62,913 nucleotides of DNA. Origin: Candidatus Terrybacteria bacterium RIFCSPHIGHO2_01_FULL_43_35. GTDB lineage: Bacteria; Patescibacteriota; Minisyncoccia; Terrybacterales; GWB1-40-14. Under the pieces are notes generated by a model. That model saw only the letters and a list, made by a program, of their open reading frames with translations. It was not told the DNA's origin and ran no database searches. How positions within the stretch are numbered: position 1 is the stretch's first letter; each line of letters begins with the position of its first letter. This document shows positions 2,962-57,170 of the stretch, one piece after another. Location of the stretch: assembly GCA_001822815.1 (NCBI GenBank), contig MHSR01000016.1, positions 1 through 62,913 on the forward strand, read 5' to 3'. The position numbers and the translations under genes were made by a program.

Positions 2962-4035
2962 TTATAAATTTATTGCCTGCAGATCCTTTACTATTTCTTC
3001 AATATTTCCTTCCATGATGCTGGCAATATTATGCCAGCTTTTTTTTATACGGTGGTCGGTAACGCGGTCCTGCGGGAAATTATAGGTGCGTATTTTATCT
3101 GATCGGTCTCCGCCTCCGACTTGGGTTTTGTGTATTTCGCTTTTCGCTTTCGCTTCCTCCTCTTCTTTAAGGGCAAGTAGTTTTGAGCGCAAGATAGACA
3201 TAGCCGCTTCCTTATTAGATTGTTGGGTGCGTTCTTTCTGGGAGGTAATGATTATGCCGGTGGGTAAATGTATTAAACGCACGGCTGTTTCTCGTTTGTT
3301 TACGTTTTGTCCACCTGGTCCGGTTGCGCGCTGAACATCTATTCTTATATCTTGTGGTTTTATCTCCAAATCCGTTTCTTGCGCTTCGGGGATAACCATT
3401 ACAGTAACCGTAGAAGTGTGTAGGCGGCCGCTTTTTTCGGTTTCGGGTACGCGTTGAACGCGGTGCACGCCGGATTCCGTTTTTAGTTTTTTGTATGCAT
3501 CTCCCCCCCTTATTATAAAAATCGCTTCTTTTTGTCCGCCAATTGATGTGTTGTTATCTTCAACGAGCTGTGTTTTCCATCCCGATTTTTCAGCGAATTT
3601 GATATACATCCGCGTTATTTCTCCGGCAAACAATGCAGCTTCATCTCCCCCAGCCCCCGGCCTTATTTCCATGACAATCCCTTCTTTTTCTGTTGCGATC
3701 CTTGAGGTCTGTCCATTAACCAACGCGGCAATTTTTTTCTCTATAGTATTTTTTTCCTCCTGCGCCATGGCATTGAGTTCCGCATCCTTTTCTGTAGCTA
3801 TAAGGTTTTTGATATCTTCAAGTTCTTTTTTCAATCTTTCTTCTTCCTCTTTTATTTTTATAGTCTGTCCAAGTTGCTTGAGCCGCCGGCCAAGTTCAGC
3901 CAAATCTTTAGGACGAGAAAGAAGCTCAGGCCTTCGGCTCTGAGAACTTTCAGGCTCGATGAGATCGCTGAGCTTTGTTTCTAAATCGCCGTATTCCGAT
4001 TTTATTTCTTCAAGAGTGCGTTCGTCTTGACTCAT
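2962..4035 (-). CDS. prfA: peptide chain release factor 1
   Basis: GPGGQNVNK (GGQ), PET (RF1 PxT), [27 protein letters not shown]; carries an 11-aa insertion near the N-terminus. Confidence 0.95.
3931..3963. repeat. 33-bp in-frame repeat-derived insertion in prfA
   Basis: 3924-3965 matches intergenic 19009-19050 at 34/42 nt. It encodes [11 protein letters not shown] between SD and PELLS. Confidence 0.75.
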
Positions 4036-4401: not shown

Positions 4402-5406
4402 TTATTTATCAGAGTCGTTAGTATCAGATTCTTGATTTGGGTTTTCTGTGGTATGACCGCATCCGTTTCTTCTGGTGTGATAGAATTTCACTGCGGAGCT
4501 TGCGACCAGCATGACGAAAGTGATTACGATAATTTGTGCGGTTGGATCAGAAAAGAAATCATTGGGCATATCATTAACGCGTATACACGGAACTACTATG
4601 CCAAACTGTCTGTAAATTTCTCCGCCAAGCTGGCAGAATGCGCCAAATAATGAACGCATAAGATATAGAGATAAACCAGTAAGCATCACCATTGAGCCTA
4701 CCAATTCACCTCTTTGGTGAGTGTCTATAGAAGCGTTCTTAGCTTTACTGCAGTAATAAATTTCCAGTGCGCGGTTGTGCACTACGTAGGTACCCAGAAT
4801 AGCGATATACATATAATTGAAGTCACGAGGCACCTCGATACCATCGAAGAAATAAATCAGAAAGGATAGAATTTGCAAAGATGCCATAGCGACACTGACG
4901 AGGAAGAAAAGGTTGTTGTGCTTGATGCGCGGTCGGATCTTTTCTTTGTCATGCACCAAGAATTTGATTATTGAATGGCCGACGAGAACAACTATTAAAG
5001 TTTCGGTAAGAAAACCGCTTTGTTCGGGAAAGTGAGGCGCAATCTTAAGTAGGTATAACCAGCCAAGCAGGATTTGGTGAAATAGCAGACCTACCCCGAA
5101 AACTTCGCCATATCGCCACAAAACACTATAGTCGTCATCCTTCGTCTCCTCATCAATGATATCGATGCCAGATTTGTTTACAGCTATTACATAGCCGGAA
5201 TATGCGCCAATAAGCAGAATTACGGTCAGCGTCAGCGAGAAAGATGCTTTTGGTTCTCCTAGGAAGGCTTCCACCGTGGTGGCAACGCCCATAACTATTG
5301 TTGCTGCTGCGCATACAATGAAACCTATGACTACCGTCCGGAACGTGCCTGGCGGCAGATGCGGATGGCGTTCAAATTGATTGCGAAGCCAGTCTAAGAC
5401 TGTCAT
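4402..5406 (-). CDS. hypothetical polytopic membrane protein
   Basis: 334-aa ORF with many hydrophobic segments and a GGAG upstream; no recognised family. Confidence 0.7.
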   Translation of the reverse strand: MTVLDWLRNQFERHPHLPPGTFRTVVIGFIVCAAATIVMGVATTVEAFLGEPKASFSLTLTVILLIGAYSGYVIAVNKSGIDIIDEETKDDDYSVLWRYGEVFGVGLLFHQILLGWLYLLKIAPHFPEQSGFLTETLIVVLVGHSIIKFLVHDKEKIRPRIKHNNLFFLVSVAMASLQILSFLIYFFDGIEVPRDFNYMYIAILGTYVVHNRALEIYYCSKAKNASIDTHQRGELVGSMVMLTGLSLYLMRSLFGAFCQLGGEIYRQFGIVVPCIRVNDMPNDFFSDPTAQIIVITFVMLVASSAVKFYHTRRNGCGHTTENPNQESDTNDSDK

Positions 5407-6993: not shown

Positions 6994-7536
6994 ATGTATT
7001 CCATTCTCGCACCATTGCTTTTCTTGCTAGGCCTTGCAGGGGTTATTTTGATTGTTGCTCGGGCGCTGCCCATATTGTCCGAGCTTCCAGAACAAGAAAA
7101 CGGCAAACAAGGATTGTTTATTGTCAATAAGATACATGAACTTATCCAGAAAATTCCTTGGCAGCGCTGGCTGTTCAACGGCATAGAAATCATTCTTAAA
7201 AAAGTGCGTATAACCTTGTTTGCGGGTCTCAAAAAATCAGAGCGCATGGTTCATTCAGTACAGACGCGTTCACAGAAATTTTCTCCGGAAAAGAGTATAG
7301 ATGTCTTGCCTAAGTTTTTTGACCGCATTAAAAAGAGGAAAGCGTTTCTTGAAGAAGAGCGCAAGCTTCTTGAGTATATAGCTCATCATCATGACGACGG
7401 CGCTTCATACAAGCGTTTGGGAAACCTTTATATAATAGCCGGCAATGTTAAGGATGCGCGAGCCGCGCTTGAGCAGGCCACGCGTCTTTTACCGGACGAT
7501 GAGGATATAATGCAGAAGTTGGAGGAATTATCTTAG
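6994..7536 (+). CDS. hypothetical membrane-anchored protein with C-terminal TPR-like repeat
   Basis: N-terminal TM; YKRLGNLY...ARAALEQATRLLPDD resembles a TPR. Confidence 0.7.
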   Translation: MYSILAPLLFLLGLAGVILIVARALPILSELPEQENGKQGLFIVNKIHELIQKIPWQRWLFNGIEIILKKVRITLFAGLKKSERMVHSVQTRSQKFSPEKSIDVLPKFFDRIKKRKAFLEEERKLLEYIAHHHDDGASYKRLGNLYIIAGNVKDARAALEQATRLLPDDEDIMQKLEELS

Positions 7537-7659
7537 CAATGTTATATTGTTTTTAGCGCATTATCTTGGCGTCAGTGTAGCTCTCCGTCGGCTGGCGGAG
7601 ACAGAGTGGCTGTTTTGTGCTAGTCCCGTTACAAATGCCGAGGTAGCTCAGCGGCAGAG

Positions 7660-7764
7660 TCCCGCCTCTTGCGCCGGAGTAGCTCAGAGGCAGAGCAATT
7701 GTTTTGTAAACAATAGGTCGTGAGTTCGATTCTCACCTCCGGCTCATCGGCGCAAGAGGCGGGA
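7660..7764. repeat. 17-bp perfect inverted repeat pair (inner layer)
   Basis: TCCCGCCTCTTGCGCCG (7660-7676) / CGGCGCAAGAGGCGGGA (7748-7764). Confidence 0.95.
7673..7744 (+). tRNA. tRNA-Thr(UGU), intact
   Basis: Full cloverleaf: GCCGGAG/CTCCGGC, GCTC/GAGC, ATTGT-TT-TGT-AA-ACAAT, GTGAG-TTCGATT-CTCAC, discriminator T; CCA not fully encoded. Confidence 0.95.
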
Positions 7765-7892
7765 TAAACAGCAGGTCGTGAGTTCAAAGCTCACCCTCGG
7801 CTCCACGGCATTTGTAACGGGATAAACAGGTCGCCCCGCAATTGCGGGGCCGCTGGCTCATATTCCTATTTGATTTTTAAAACATTAAGTAG

Positions 7893-8067
7893 TGGTTTAG
7901 TTTTTGCGACTTAGCGGAAGCGTTTGTTGCAAAATATAGCTAAGTACAAGCGAATTTGCGGAAAAGGAAACGCATCCCGAAGAATTAGGGTGCGGCCCGT
8001 TCCGGAAATTCGTGCAGTACGAAGCATATTTTGCCAAACGTTGAAGCGTTAAGCAAAAATTAAACCA
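7893..8067. other. ~175-nt rod-like imperfect hairpin between tRNA-Thr and tRNA-Tyr
   Basis: Nested pairings TGGTTTAGTTTTTGC/GCAAAAATTAAACCA, CGTTTG/CAAACG, GCAAAATAT/ATATTTTGC, CGAATTT/AAATTCG, CGGAA/TTCCG, CGCATCCC/GGGTGCG. Confidence 0.8.
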
Positions 8068-8076
8068 AAGCGTCTC

Positions 8077-8160
8077 GCTGGGGTACCGAAGCGGTCAAAC
8101 GGGACAGACTGTAAATCTGTTGGCATTACGCCTTCGATGGTTCGAGTCCATCCCCCAGCA
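8077..8160 (+). tRNA. tRNA-Tyr(GUA)
   Basis: GCTGGGG/CCCCAGC acceptor, ACAGA-CT-GTA-AA-TCTGT, long variable arm, GATGG-TTCGAGT-CCATC, discriminator A. Confidence 0.95.
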
Positions 8161-8339
8161 CTTTGACAAGCCCAGTGCAGGCACTAGGGCAATTCCGGCG
8201 TCATTTGTCGACGTCGGAATTTTTATTACCGGAAGAACGAGAGTTTCAAATTGGCCCGGATTTTCCACTGCTTATTCATAACTGTTCTAATGGCATAAGA
8301 GAGTTGCATTTTTGCAAAAGAGATGTACGATGAAACTGT

Positions 8340-8726
8340 ATGGATAAAAGGATTATTTTCCTTATACTTGCAGTCATAACAGCCGTGTTTGTATTCGGTG
8401 TATTCACGTTTGCGGCATGCGGTACAGACGGAATGAATTCTCATATGCCGGGCATGAAGAATTGTCCGCAGGCGGTTGCGGCGGCTATGCATCATATCGG
8501 TGCGTTTTTGAACGACTTTGCGGCAATATCCGTCATTGCGGTTATTTGCGCCACTCTTGTTTTGGTTAGTATTATGAAAATTGTTTTTCCCGCGCTTAAG
8601 GTGTTAGATAGGCCTTTCCGTTTTTACTTATTGCGCCATATCAATCTTTTGGTAATTTCCGCGTTTTCTTACCTTTTCAGTAACGGCATTTTACATAGAA
8701 AAGAGGCTCATAGCGTTATCGTATAA
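8340..8726 (+). CDS. hypothetical membrane protein (His/Met/Cys-containing)
   Basis: Hydrophobic segments flanking CGTDGMNSHMPGMKNC; first gene of the cargo region. Confidence 0.65.
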   Translation: MDKRIIFLILAVITAVFVFGVFTFAACGTDGMNSHMPGMKNCPQAVAAAMHHIGAFLNDFAAISVIAVICATLVLVSIMKIVFPALKVLDRPFRFYLLRHINLLVISAFSYLFSNGILHRKEAHSVIV

Positions 8727-18683: not shown

Positions 18684-18718
18684 GCCAACGTAGCTCAGTG
18701 ATATAGTCCTGCGGGGAT
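18684..18718 (+). pseudogene. 5' tRNA-Thr-like fragment followed by a collapsed TAGTCC...GGGAT motif
   Basis: GCCAACG-TA-GCTC-AGTG mirrors the start of tRNA-Thr(GGU) 67 bp downstream; followed by TAGTCCTGCGGGGAT. Confidence 0.5.
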
Positions 18719-18750: not shown

Positions 18751-18822
18751 GCCGATGTAGCTCAGTGGTAGAGCAACTCCATGGTAAGGAGTAGGTCGTC
18801 AGTTCAATCCTGACCATCGGCT
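18751..18822 (+). tRNA. tRNA-Thr(GGU)
   Basis: GCCGATG/CATCGGC, ACTCC-AT-GGT-AA-GGAGT, GTCAG-TTCAATC-CTGAC. Confidence 0.95.
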
Positions 18823-18877
18823 CAAATTTGCAAAGCAAATTTGCCCTGAATTGATTGAAGGGCTACATAAATTAAAA

Positions 18878-57033: not shown

Positions 57034-57170
57034 ATCCCGTTAGAAACACATAGCGGGCAATAGAAAATTTACGAGATATAATAAGTGATTAATCTTTAAA
57101 ACAGGTTTTGCGAATTATTACGGAAGCGCTTTAGTGTCTTTCGTAAAGCGCTTCCTGTTTCTAACGGGAT
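57034..57170. mobile_element. 137-bp MITE-like element with perfect 15-bp TIRs, overlapping the atpA start codon
   Basis: ATCCCGTTAGAAACA (57034-48) / TGTTTCTAACGGGAT (57156-70); internal hairpin GGAAGCGCTTTA/TAAAGCGCTTCC; ATG at 57169. Confidence 0.75.

Follow-up and report, generated by a model that had tools for sequence, protein, structure and literature searches.

Anticodon loops of tRNA genes are classic targets of integrases. Integrative elements with tyrosine integrases of the P4/HP1 type take tRNA genes as their attachment sites and bring a replacement for the 3′ part that they displace; Williams is said to have described in 2002 how P4-type integrases target the tRNA anticodon loop in this way. 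Long-range helices are known around stable RNAs as well, namely the processing stems of rRNA operons, which flank a stable RNA and are cut by RNase III. Correia/NEMIS are examples of bacterial MITEs. MITEs are non-autonomous elements with terminal inverted repeats (PMC11602168). The GIY-YIG enzyme SegB of phage T4 represents a free-standing homing endonuclease cassette located in a tRNA cluster (PMC2330249). In archaea, disrupted tRNA genes include those with mobile bulge-helix-bulge introns and those of split and tri-split tRNAs (PMC4033280; PMC10714607). In bacteria, the sole published type of tRNA gene interruption is the group I intron, located in the anticodon loop (PMC4033280).

Here, we analysed a stretch of DNA of 62,913 nt (the window) from what is taken to be an uncultured groundwater Parcubacterium, with Candidatus Terrybacteria as the closest named kin. 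The locus resembles each of the above systems in some respects and departs from each in others. It likely arose by two successive cassette invasions of a tRNA-Thr(UGU) gene, each bringing a replacement tRNA, so that the innermost gene alone would work. A full-text literature search found no earlier description of such a mobile element, as the original prediction had supposed.

Organization of the Nested tRNA-Thr Locus

Three tRNA-Thr bodies are nested concentrically in the window. The intact tRNA-Thr(UGU) is the innermost one, and two layers surround it; a perfect 17-bp inverted repeat closes each of them, and the halves of an older tRNA-Thr gene lie on either side. The nested bodies, arms and acceptor stems were all found where the original prediction had placed them. 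All features described below lie on the + strand.

The 5′ part of the outer shell (7571..7617) covers tRNA positions 1-35 of a GTCAGTG-type gene, the original resident tRNA-Thr(UGU), and its 3′ end reads ...GGCTGTTTTG. The intact homologue of this part, GCCAGTGTAGCTCAGCGGCAGAGCAGCTGTTTTGTAAACAGCAG, was found in the close relative L139. A 16-nt hairpin in the D-loop of the outer shell, TCCGTCGGCTGGCGGA (7584..7599), is a secondary hairpin insertion into dead DNA; related hairpins of the form CTCCGNC...GNCGGAG occupy the same spot in L010 and L055, again in the outer shell. The conserved linker TGCTAG (7618..7623) connects G35 of the outer shell with the left arm of layer 1, and its counterparts in relatives read CGCCAG, CGTCAG, CACCAG or CCAG. 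Two origins of the linker, from an intermediate layer that collapsed or from the GCCAG strand of the outer acceptor, were considered and set aside as inconsistent among loci.

The left arm of layer 1, TCCCGTTACAAATGCCG (7624..7640), is followed, with an overlap of 4 nt, by the 5′ part of the middle shell (7637..7659), which comprises positions 1-24 and reads GCCGAGGTAGCTCAGCGGCAGAG. Next comes the left arm of layer 2, TCCCGCCTCTTGCGCCG (7660..7676), which overlaps in the same way with the live tRNA-Thr(UGU) gene (7673..7744), a gene of GCCGGAG type with no encoded CCA. Both left arms thus end in GCCG, the first four nucleotides of the enclosed tRNA, as had been predicted. On the other side, the right arm of layer 2, CGGCGCAAGAGGCGGGA (7748..7764), is complementary to 7660-7676 at 17/17 positions. 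It is followed by the 3′ part of the middle shell, TAAACAGCAGGTCGTGAGTTCAAAGCTCACCCTCGGCTCCA (7765..7805), which runs from position 36 to the discriminator and then CCA. The right arm of layer 1, CGGCATTTGTAACGGGA (7806..7822), is likewise complementary to 7624-7640 at 17/17 positions. The predicted perfect repeats were therefore confirmed in both layers, and the layer 1 repeat can be extended to 20 nt at 95% complementarity. The 3′ part of the outer shell (7823..7858) has the structure TAAACAGGTCG-CCCCGCAATTGCGGGG-CCGCTGGCT, in which the palindrome CCCCGCAATTGCGGGG, forming a CCCCG...CGGGG mini-hairpin (7834-7849), stands in place of the T arm. Three nucleotides of its variable region are missing. 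The T arm is still intact in the homologous outer shell of L129. All three predicted acceptor pairs were recovered: GTCAGTG/CGCTGGC with two G-T pairs, GCCGAGG/CCTCGGC and GCCGGAG/CTCCGGC.

The inserts have lengths of 105 and 205 nt and no coding capacity. The motif TCCCG-N8-GCCG occurs four times in the window, always in the nest, with an expected number of 0.28. The 301-nt region folds with an energy of -151.5 kcal/mol (z = -8.4), and none of 100 shuffled sequences was equally stable.

State of the Shells and the Functional Gene

A single intact tRNA-Thr(UGU) was called in the nest, at 7673-7744/5, by both ARAGORN and the Rfam tRNA model (72.7 bits, E = 8.7e-16). This innermost gene is predicted to be the only functional gene of the nest. 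The original prediction described both shells as interrupted. They are indeed split by the inserts, but this is not the whole of the damage: the middle shell also lacks positions 25-35, with its junction AGAG|TCCCG lying within the D stem, and the outer shell lacks its T arm. Insertion into the anticodon loop of the outer shell was likewise borne out; the site, predicted at 36/37, is placed by the relatives at 35/36, the T being ambiguous in the window.

It had also been proposed that the hairpin-bounded insert is an excisable, intron-like unit whose removal restores the outer tRNAs. In an extended form of this reading, the inner tRNA would be released and the shells re-ligated into further functional tRNA-Thr molecules. 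The long arm helices would bring the shell halves together, like the leaders of archaeal split tRNAs (PMC4033280). The arm pairing covaries, with G-U in two of the four non-Watson-Crick cells, and in L131 and L132, whose middle shells are young, exact excision of the inserts would turn these shells into good tRNAs. The window, however, speaks against it. In-silico removal of either insert gave no tRNA from any shell, even with relaxed ARAGORN thresholds, in keeping with the missing positions 25-35 of the middle shell and with the absent T arm and the D-loop hairpin of the outer one. The shells are therefore not regarded as exons of an intron system. For the middle shells of L131 and L132, tRNA scores are still obtained after excision, but all outer shells of the relatives fail as well; a recent insertion would leave shells intact, as in these two loci.

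The known splicing machineries do not fit either. A cmscan of 7300-8300 with E up to 10 returned tRNA and chance matches alone and no group I core, and the 62.9-kb window contains no gene for a splicing endonuclease (EndA). On inspection, the arms give a continuous 17-bp helix, and the junctions are internal loops of 8x3 or 6x1 beside this perfect helix, not the 3-nt/4-bp/3-nt arrangement of a bulge-helix-bulge. The helix and the anticodon stem are separated by 10 nt (5′) versus 3 nt (3′) in the window; in L131, the figures are 8 and 3 nt. Given the dead shells, the lack of a group I core and the lack of bulge-helix-bulge junctions, restoration of the outer tRNAs is not supported in the window, and the RNA-level reading as a whole is very unlikely. 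The nest is a DNA-level scar and not an intron system. Both shells appear to be structurally dead, and the four flanking half-genes would be decaying pseudogene shells. Judged from their scores, shell decay probably increases with age, the middle shells of L131 and L132 being young.

When the 5′ and 3′ parts of the middle shell are joined through outer positions 25-35, the resulting chimera scores as a tRNA. This is no sign of a shuffle: the two older genes simply have similar anticodon stems.

Layer Series in Related Genomes

If tRNA-Thr anticodon loops are invaded time and again by a small element with a replacement tRNA, as originally proposed, loci with fewer layers are expected among the relatives, and states with zero, one and two layers were all found. 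In L139, whose EF-Ts is 80% identical to that of the window, a GCCAGTG-type gene runs uninterrupted and represents the intact form of the window's outer shell; the L139 sequence stops just past the anticodon arm, so the 5′ two-thirds of this empty site are visible. In L136, a GCCGAGG-type gene that is 92% identical to the window's middle shell is also uninterrupted. More generally, the middle shell shares 92-93% identity with the live genes of L136 and L129. One layer is present in L137/138, L010, L055, L129, L124 and L142, and two layers in L131/133 and L132. The closest pair is L136 and L137/138, which have identical EF-Ts proteins: the gene is intact in the former, while in the latter a tRNA-Thr cassette with 10-bp arms interrupts the same gene at the loop position seen elsewhere. 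In the one-layer forms of L129, L010 and L055, the linker and the arm family are those of the window.

The TCCCGTTACA cassette is present in lineages at 36-47% EF-Ts identity to the window and absent from relatives at 79-80%, and on these sequences its distribution appears patchy. The window, L124 and L142 have the same 24|36 junction although their arms are unrelated, and the shell halves of L055 and L142 are mismatched hybrids. Every cassette has the same orientation as its shell. Most cassette-bearing loci came from a cassette-motif search, so their frequencies are biased; in an unbiased synteny sample, a cassette was present at two of six distinct loci. A pattern scan of contigs was dominated by GC-rich chance matches, and among the matches listed, 2/119 were real after the arm-complementarity filter. 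The junction motif had no match in viral contigs.

Arm Pairing and the Origin of the Layers

Across nine cassettes, the arms pair in 98.7% of cells, a level that none of 500 shuffles reached; slid controls gave 38-42%. Nine of the 17 arm pairs are altered on both sides, and G-U accounts for two of the four non-Watson-Crick cells. Arm pairing is maintained through compensatory changes while the shells decay, although the perfection of the arms might be preserved at the level of DNA instead of RNA.

The layers create tandem direct repeats with a unit of 36 nt to the left and of 58 nt to the right, at 72% identity, which raises the possibility that they arose through tandem duplication or slippage of these units with no mobile element involved. 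The L156 assembly is short by exactly one 36-nt unit, which either slippage or the assembler could cause. The arms argue against such an origin. The arm cores of the two layers, TTACAAAT and CCTCTTGC (the arm of the inner cassette being TCCCGCCTCTTGC), share one of eight positions, and each is perfectly complementary to its own partner, while the adjoining tRNA parts are still ~84% identical; two independent duplications would have required eight coordinated double changes. The layers are therefore regarded as independent arrivals. Moreover, the outer arm, linker and junction are seen again in distant lineages, and close relatives have uninterrupted genes. Local duplication is accordingly a highly improbable source of the nest.

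Related Elements and Search for Enzymes

The terminal motif YCCCG(T/C) is common to the nine cassettes and to three copies at non-tRNA sites. One of the latter is a hairpin-ended element in the window (57035..57169) with 14-bp ends TCCCGTTAGAAACA / TGTTTCTAACGGGA and no tRNA inside. It sits at the start codon of atpA and is flanked by a 4-bp target duplication, TGGA. An AtpA search revealed the corresponding empty site (...TAAGTATGGATTC) in the relatives L147/L148; a search for the same empty site through atpH homologues returned the query alone. Each of the three non-tRNA copies has a 4-nt direct repeat (TGGA, TGAA and TTGA). The end family is thus mobile DNA, one insertion being confirmed by the empty site, and the cassette ends (YCCCGTTA... 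or TCCCGC...) belong to a family of protein-less, hairpin-ended elements. No target duplication was found at the tRNA cassettes, where the left flank ends in CAG, TAG or GAG and the right flank is TAAAC. TGTA, TAAA and longer repeats were inspected by eye as a hidden duplication at these sites, and none fits the left flank. Since the 4-bp duplication accompanies only the non-tRNA copies, the two kinds may move differently.

The window contains a further fragment at its second Thr gene (18684..18717), composed of positions 1-24 of a tRNA-Thr, GCCAACGTAGCTCAGTGATATAG, and a collapsed TCC-TGCG-GGGA hairpin. It ends 33 nt upstream of the live tRNA-Thr(GGU) at 18751-18823, and its D-stem junction (..AG|TCC) matches those of the window's middle shell, L124 and L132. 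It is probably a relic of the process that formed the nest.

No gene for a transposase (including Y1), integrase, reverse transcriptase, HNH nuclease or small GIY-YIG nuclease was found in the 62.9-kb window. A weak tblastn match to a small GIY-YIG protein proved to be UvrC, which has the sole GIY-YIG domain in the window. In L124 and L142, i.e., at two of about 12 loci, a small GIY-YIG gene sits next to the tRNA cluster; the two genes are homologous (41% identical) and lie outside the arms. The idea that a nuclease is carried within the arms was dropped, as these genes are free-standing, and the link between the cassettes and the GIY-YIG nuclease is weak. In L055, an HNH match beside the tRNA cluster scored 20.7 bits, under the cut-off.

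These searches bear on the question of whether the nest consists of scars left by tyrosine-integrase islands or phages that entered tRNA-Thr and left displaced fragments behind. Such a history would agree with the preference of integrases for anticodon loops and with the supply of a replacement by the element, and tRNA-Tyr and tRNA-Thr(GGU) enclose a cargo-like region of 10.5 kb. Integration, however, leaves an intact chimeric gene and 3′ fragments downstream alone, whereas here 5′ and 3′ halves are arranged concentrically around a complete gene. There is no direct-repeat core common to the insert ends, the inserts are short and non-coding, and no integrase is encoded in the window. This topology largely excludes scars of classical integrative elements, which are a scarcely credible source of the nest.

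Support for the Assembly

Logan contigs of four runs match 7300-7721 and 7693-8113 with no mismatches, and the left and right contigs have equal depth in all four. A region of 804 nt (7537-8340) is 100% identical in four independent assemblies. In runs X11-X15, where the organism has a low share, the same organism was found at low depth, with no alternative joints and no strain variants with fewer layers. The least plausible explanation, a chimera of mis-joined reads from the tRNA-Thr genes of several organisms, could draw on the breakage of de Bruijn contigs in the live tRNA, whose k-mers also occur in other organisms, on N gaps and an inverted piece precisely at the nest in a GenBank MAG copy (L152) and on a 36-nt collapse at the nest in L156, but it fails against the equally deep contigs, the identical assemblies, the same architecture in other lineages and the perfect complementarity of left-contig arms to right-contig arms, which chance joins would not yield.

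Proposed Mechanism and Significance

In the favoured reading of two successive invasions, a resident gene of GCCAGTG type would have been split between anticodon positions 35 and 36 by a first cassette, consisting of a promoter-less, full GCCGAGG-type tRNA-Thr(UGU) gene flanked by two complementary arms. The GCCGAGG-type gene would then have become the working copy until a second cassette, of GCCGGAG type and with other arms, replaced its positions 25-35. The shells presumably go on gathering small hairpin insertions, and elements of the end family would transpose at non-tRNA sites with a 4-bp target duplication. No promoter-like site was found inside the nest, and the resident promoter would drive its transcription. 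In the precursor RNA, each arm pair may form a helix that separates the shell halves from the live tRNA and may offer a processing site of the RNase III type. RNase P and a 3′ processing enzyme would free the single live tRNA.

For the route of entry, we give about even odds to recombination: in a gene conversion akin to homing, the shell halves on either side of a donor cassette would recombine with the target tRNA, possibly set off by a nuclease acting in trans. This route is favoured because the tRNA cassettes lack a target duplication, because the 24|36 junction recurs with unrelated arms, because shell halves are sometimes mismatched hybrids and because homologous GIY-YIG genes adjoin the tRNA clusters of L124 and L142. 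Direct transposition by a trans-acting enzyme is possible but less probable, and some other route is rather unlikely.

Going beyond this locus, we lean slightly towards the view that CPR bacteria harbour a class of minimal selfish elements. Such elements would be promoter-less, protein-less and hairpin-armed, with a complete tRNA gene as their sole cargo. They would home into the loop DNA of the cognate tRNA gene, borrow its promoter and replace the resident, spread across distant lineages by recombination between conserved tRNA sequences, perhaps with a small GIY-YIG or similar nuclease acting in trans, and, over repeated rounds, stack up in the manner of Russian dolls and keep tRNA genes in constant turnover. 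If this is true, tRNA genes of bacteria with ultra-small genomes are overwritten time after time by very small mobile cassettes, each supplying a spare copy of the very gene that it destroys, a logic apart from that of transposons, integrative islands, homing-endonuclease genes and introns. It would provide a concrete route to horizontal replacement of core translation genes, account for half-tRNA fragments and hairpins near CPR tRNA genes, and supply a bacterial counterpart for the debate on the origin of archaeal split and intron-bearing tRNA genes. The arms, together with the moving enzyme, could serve as tools for precise insertion at tRNA genes. On the practical side, nested loci break assemblies, as in the GenBank MAG copy, and can mislead tRNA annotation.

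Comparison with Known Systems

The cassettes come close to MITEs in their small size, their lack of proteins and the inverted repeats of 13-18 bp at their ends. MITE repeats measure at least 10-15 bp, and the arms of the nest are perfect over 17 bp. Like MITEs, the inserts of 105 and 205 nt carry no transposase of their own, and none is encoded elsewhere in the 62.9-kb window. End-family copies at non-tRNA sites also behave as MITEs do: a 4-bp target duplication accompanies them, and relatives have an empty site. The tRNA cassettes differ in that the 2-10 bp target duplication of MITEs is confined to the non-tRNA copies, in that they carry a full, functional tRNA gene whose identity matches that of the gene they split, and in that their inner arm sequence is free to vary while pairing is kept, with no internal sequence common to the copies. 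IS200/IS605 or REP/RAYT elements have end hairpins, lack a target duplication and integrate 3′ of a short fixed motif. The tRNA cassettes have no duplication and a left flank that always ends in AG, but their ends pair mutually instead of forming separate subterminal hairpins.

With SegB-type cassettes, the nest shares the targeting of tRNA genes and the lack of a target duplication, SegB spreading by break repair from a donor allele, and small GIY-YIG genes lie beside two related loci. In contrast to these cassettes, there is no nuclease gene in or beside the window's cassette (tblastn gave no HNH or small GIY-YIG homologue). SegB-type homing replaces sequence, and no half-genes nested about a hairpin-bounded insert result from it.

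As in integrative elements at tRNA sites, the invader targets the anticodon loop and supplies what its invasion disrupts. Here, however, the whole gene is replaced and not a 3′ segment, and the 105-205 nt inserts have no integrase (window), no att repeats and a concentric topology. The interruption in the anticodon loop recalls the bacterial group I introns, but no catalytic core was detected with Rfam, and the insert is too short and is mainly tRNA. With rRNA processing stems, the arms seem to share a long-range helix around a stable RNA whose pairing is kept by compensatory change; unlike those stems, the arms of the nest came with a mobile cassette.

The archaeal disrupted tRNA genes also offer parallels: complementary flanks draw the halves together, inserts occupy anticodon-loop and D-arm positions, and they act as mobile units in organisms with ultra-small genomes. 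The junctions of the window have no bulge-helix-bulge motif. The archaeal systems operate at the RNA level, where a splicing endonuclease ligates exons into a functional tRNA; here, it is the exon-like shells that are dead, and the insert is the functional tRNA.

Structure of the Nested Locus

The locus is very likely a scar left by two rounds of invasion by replacement-tRNA cassettes (tRNA genes between two complementary arms), in which the interrupted genes, or shells, are dead. From the outside, it consists of the 5′ part of an outer tRNA (7571-7617, GTCAGTG...GGCTGTTTTG), the linker TGCTAG, the left arm of layer 1 (7624-7640, TCCCGTTACAAATGCCG), the 5′ part of a middle tRNA (7637-7659, GCCGAGGTAGCTCAGCGGCAGAG), the left arm of layer 2 (7660-7676, TCCCGCCTCTTGCGCCG) and, innermost, a complete tRNA-Thr(UGU) (7673-7744). 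Then follow the spacer CAT, the right arm of layer 2 (7748-7764, CGGCGCAAGAGGCGGGA), the 3′ part of the middle tRNA with CCA (7765-7805), the right arm of layer 1 (7806-7822, CGGCATTTGTAACGGGA) and the 3′ part of the outer tRNA (7823-7858). Each arm pair is a perfect 17-bp inverted repeat, and the innermost gene is the sole tRNA called in the nest by ARAGORN and Rfam (72.7 bits). The concentric tRNA-Thr nest with perfect 17-bp repeats proposed for 7571-7860 was confirmed. Within the window, TCCCG-N8-GCCG occurs only here (0.28 expected), and the nest folds far more stably than shuffled sequences (z = -8.4). The gene order is rpsB, tsf, a TPR gene, the nest and tRNA-Tyr; the closest named EF-Ts, 79% identical, belongs to Candidatus Terrybacteria. 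A rod-like hairpin of ~175 nt between the nest and tRNA-Tyr (7893-8067; -83.1 kcal/mol, z = -10, 0/200 shuffles equally stable) is probably transcribed together with the neighbouring tRNAs.

An assembly artefact was rejected, as in four runs Logan contigs match 7300-7721 and 7693-8113 without mismatches and at equal depth, each arm on the left contig is the exact complement of its partner on the right, and 804 nt are 100% identical in four independent assemblies that carry this organism's exact EF-Ts. The contigs are interrupted solely within the live tRNA, whose k-mers also occur in other organisms. The nest is identical in the strain variant L155. In the deposited MAG copy (L152, GenBank MHSV01000011.1), the nest is precisely where two N runs and an inverted fragment lie (3232-3400); evidently, such loci break or scramble short-read scaffolding. 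Assembly L156 (3165-3495) differs from the window by C>G at window 7740 and by the absence of exactly one 36-nt left unit (7660-7695), through either assembler collapse or slippage between the direct repeats that successive layers form. Runs X1-X4 and X11-X15 also contain a tRNA-Thr(CGU) across the joint 7659>7775, with 23-nt ends common to the middle shell and intervening letters CACTGCTTTCGTAAAGCAGGT. This signal must come partly from other organisms because its depth in some runs is well above that of this organism.

State of the Shells

The original prediction had offered, as an alternative, that the inserts are excised to restore the outer tRNAs. For this locus, it is ruled out: in-silico removal of either insert yielded no tRNA with ARAGORN, even at relaxed thresholds, Rfam found no group I core at the nest, and the junctions do not form a bulge-helix-bulge motif. 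The middle shell lacks positions 25-35, with the junction AGAG|TCCCG within the D stem. In the outer shell, the D loop holds a 16-nt hairpin, 3 nt of the variable region are lost and CCCCGCAATTGCGGGG stands in place of the T arm. After excision, a tRNA is still recognised in the young middle shells of two-layer relatives (L131 and L132), and in no outer shell, nor in either shell of the window. Such an age gradient is expected if insertions came one after another and the shells then decayed as pseudogenes. A family of small hairpins, (C)TCCG(A/T)C-loop-G(T/A)CGGAG, recurs in dead-shell D loops and in spacers around the tRNA cluster of several lineages (window 7582-7601; L010, L055, L137, L142).

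Loci with Zero, One and Two Layers

Orthologous Thr-Tyr loci were collected from many lineages by two pattern scans and protein-anchored look-ups. Loci with zero, one and two layers were all found, which supports the predicted repeated entry of a replacement tRNA. Among zero-layer loci, L139 (EF-Ts 80% identical to that of the window) has the outer shell uninterrupted as far as the contig extends (GCCAGTGTAGCTCAGCGGCAGAGCAGCTGTTTTGTAAACAGCAG), L136 carries a GCCGAGG-type gene without interruption, at 92% identity to the window's middle shell, and L144 and L146 have an intact gene. In L137/L138, whose EF-Ts protein is the same as in L136, the insert TTCCGCCAGA[tRNA-Thr]TCTGGCGGAA divides the L136-type gene at the same loop position. 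One layer is also present in L010, L055 and L129 (...TTTTG|CGCCAG|TCCCGTTACA..GCCG[tRNA]CGGC..TGTAACGGGA|TAAA). L129, whose outer shell is of the window's type (GCCAGTG/CGCTGGC) and whose live gene matches the window's middle shell at 93% identity, looks, by sequence, like the window locus before the second invasion. The one-layer loci L124 and L142 share the 24|36 junction of the window's middle shell, with different arms; of the two-layer loci, L131/L133 have both inserts at 35/36, and L132 is a further case. A cassette was present in two of six distinct loci of an unbiased, synteny-derived sample.

Local duplication of the layers was rejected in favour of independent arrivals, because their arm cores agree at 1/8 positions, against ~84% identity in the tRNA parts next to them. 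The TCCCGTTACA cassette and its linker are common to lineages with EF-Ts only 36-47% identical to that of the window, where similarity of the locus is bounded at both ends by the shell tRNA; the cassette is absent from relatives at 79-80% EF-Ts identity, a distribution read as horizontal spread.

Cassette Ends and Route of Entry

Hairpin elements with CCCGTTAGA ends in this genome were tested for an empty site and target duplication. Elements with YCCCGTTA(C/G)A ends and unrelated, tRNA-free cargo occur in the window (57035-57169, 135 nt, arms TCCCGTTAGAAACA / TGTTTCTAACGGGA), L010 and L129, each flanked by a 4-nt direct repeat (TGGA in the window; TGAA and TTGA). The window copy sits exactly on the atpA start codon, with ATG rebuilt from its last A and the duplicated TG, and L147/L148 have the empty site (...TAAGTATGGATTC). 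Judged from these sequences, the cassette ends belong to a family of mobile DNA. In L149/L150, the same spacer holds a hairpin insert of another kind, 75 nt long.

Mini-hairpins with end-family termini lie at the T-arm position of the outer shell, at 18707-18717 ahead of tRNA-Thr(GGU), in the D stem of the L132 middle gene and in a dead tRNA-Tyr fragment of L124. At 18684-18717, positions 1-24 of a tRNA-Thr form a 5′ fragment joined to a collapsed TCC-TGCG-GGGA hairpin; the live tRNA-Thr(GGU) follows after 33 nt, and the D-stem junction of the fragment is of the middle shell's type. A second cassette type (TTGCTNNTTGT AGC... / ...ACAAANAGGGAA) was observed in two relatives. In L132 ((+) about 1245-1500), it brings a tRNA-Thr(CGU) into the D stem (24/25) of a further tRNA-Thr(CGU), beside an empty TCCCG...CGGGA hairpin; in L010 (reverse complement, about 5255-5300), an empty version lies within the outer shell.

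Insertion is serial, precise and co-oriented, at 35/36 or in place of positions 25-35, and the cassette brings a complete replacement gene and no other gene of its own. No promoter-like site was found within the nest; a resident promoter would drive its transcription, and ordinary processing enzymes would free the live tRNA. As the route of entry, we favour a homing-like process in which the target gene would recombine with the shell halves on either side of a donor cassette, and which a nuclease acting in trans may set off. The sequence features behind this preference are that the 4-bp duplication is missing at the tRNA cassettes, that the 24|36 junction is found again with unrelated arms and that mismatched hybrids occur among the shells. 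Alternatively, the enzyme responsible for moving the non-tRNA copies could transpose the cassettes directly. Position 35 is the centre of a 15-bp palindrome in the anticodon-arm DNA (CTGTTT-TGT-AAACAG), a symmetry that would fit a dimeric enzyme.

The window has no gene for a transposase, an integrase, a reverse transcriptase, a splicing endonuclease, an HNH protein or a small GIY-YIG protein; UvrA, UvrC, RmuC and a PD-(D/E)XK protein were the only nucleases found in it. In L124 and L142, mutually homologous small GIY-YIG genes lie next to the tRNA cluster, where L055 has a weak HNH-like ORF. In L124 (1825-2240), a 91-aa GIY-YIG gene (63 bits) directly abuts the live tRNA-Tyr; this tRNA appears to have been replaced too, since a dead tRNA-Tyr 3′ fragment with the mini-hairpin TCCCGCTATAAGCGGGA lies behind it. 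In L142 (4334-4432 and 5608-5964), the 20-nt hairpin unit ACCGAGTCAAACTCGGTTTT is repeated five times in tandem between tRNA-Tyr and a 95-aa GIY-YIG gene, with a 23S_rRNA_IVP-family gene nearby.

Pairing of the Arms

In a comparison of nine cassettes, pairing extends to 98.7% of the arm cells (38-42% in slid controls), and two-sided changes in 9/17 arm pairs amount to 23 cells, a number reached by none of 500 shuffles. The pairing is either selected or continually regenerated, because the outer arms of the window are perfect whereas the equally old outer shell is badly decayed. We infer that the arms would act in RNA by insulating the live tRNA from the look-alike shell halves, and they are possibly an RNase III-type site; a DNA-level requirement may instead account for them. 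Both the RNA role of the arms and the entry mechanism are proposed as hypotheses.

Comparison with Known Systems

A full-text literature search retrieved neither tRNA genes nested in tRNA genes nor bacterial tRNA-carrying hairpin cassettes, in agreement with the original statement that no tRNA-in-tRNA-in-tRNA arrangement was known to have been described. As far as the literature was searched, the replacement-tRNA cassette is an undescribed kind of element. Reviews list group I introns alone as interruptions of bacterial tRNA genes (PMC4033280). The closest published analogues are archaeal mobile tRNA introns and split tRNAs, T4 SegB (PMC2330249) and MITEs (PMC11602168).
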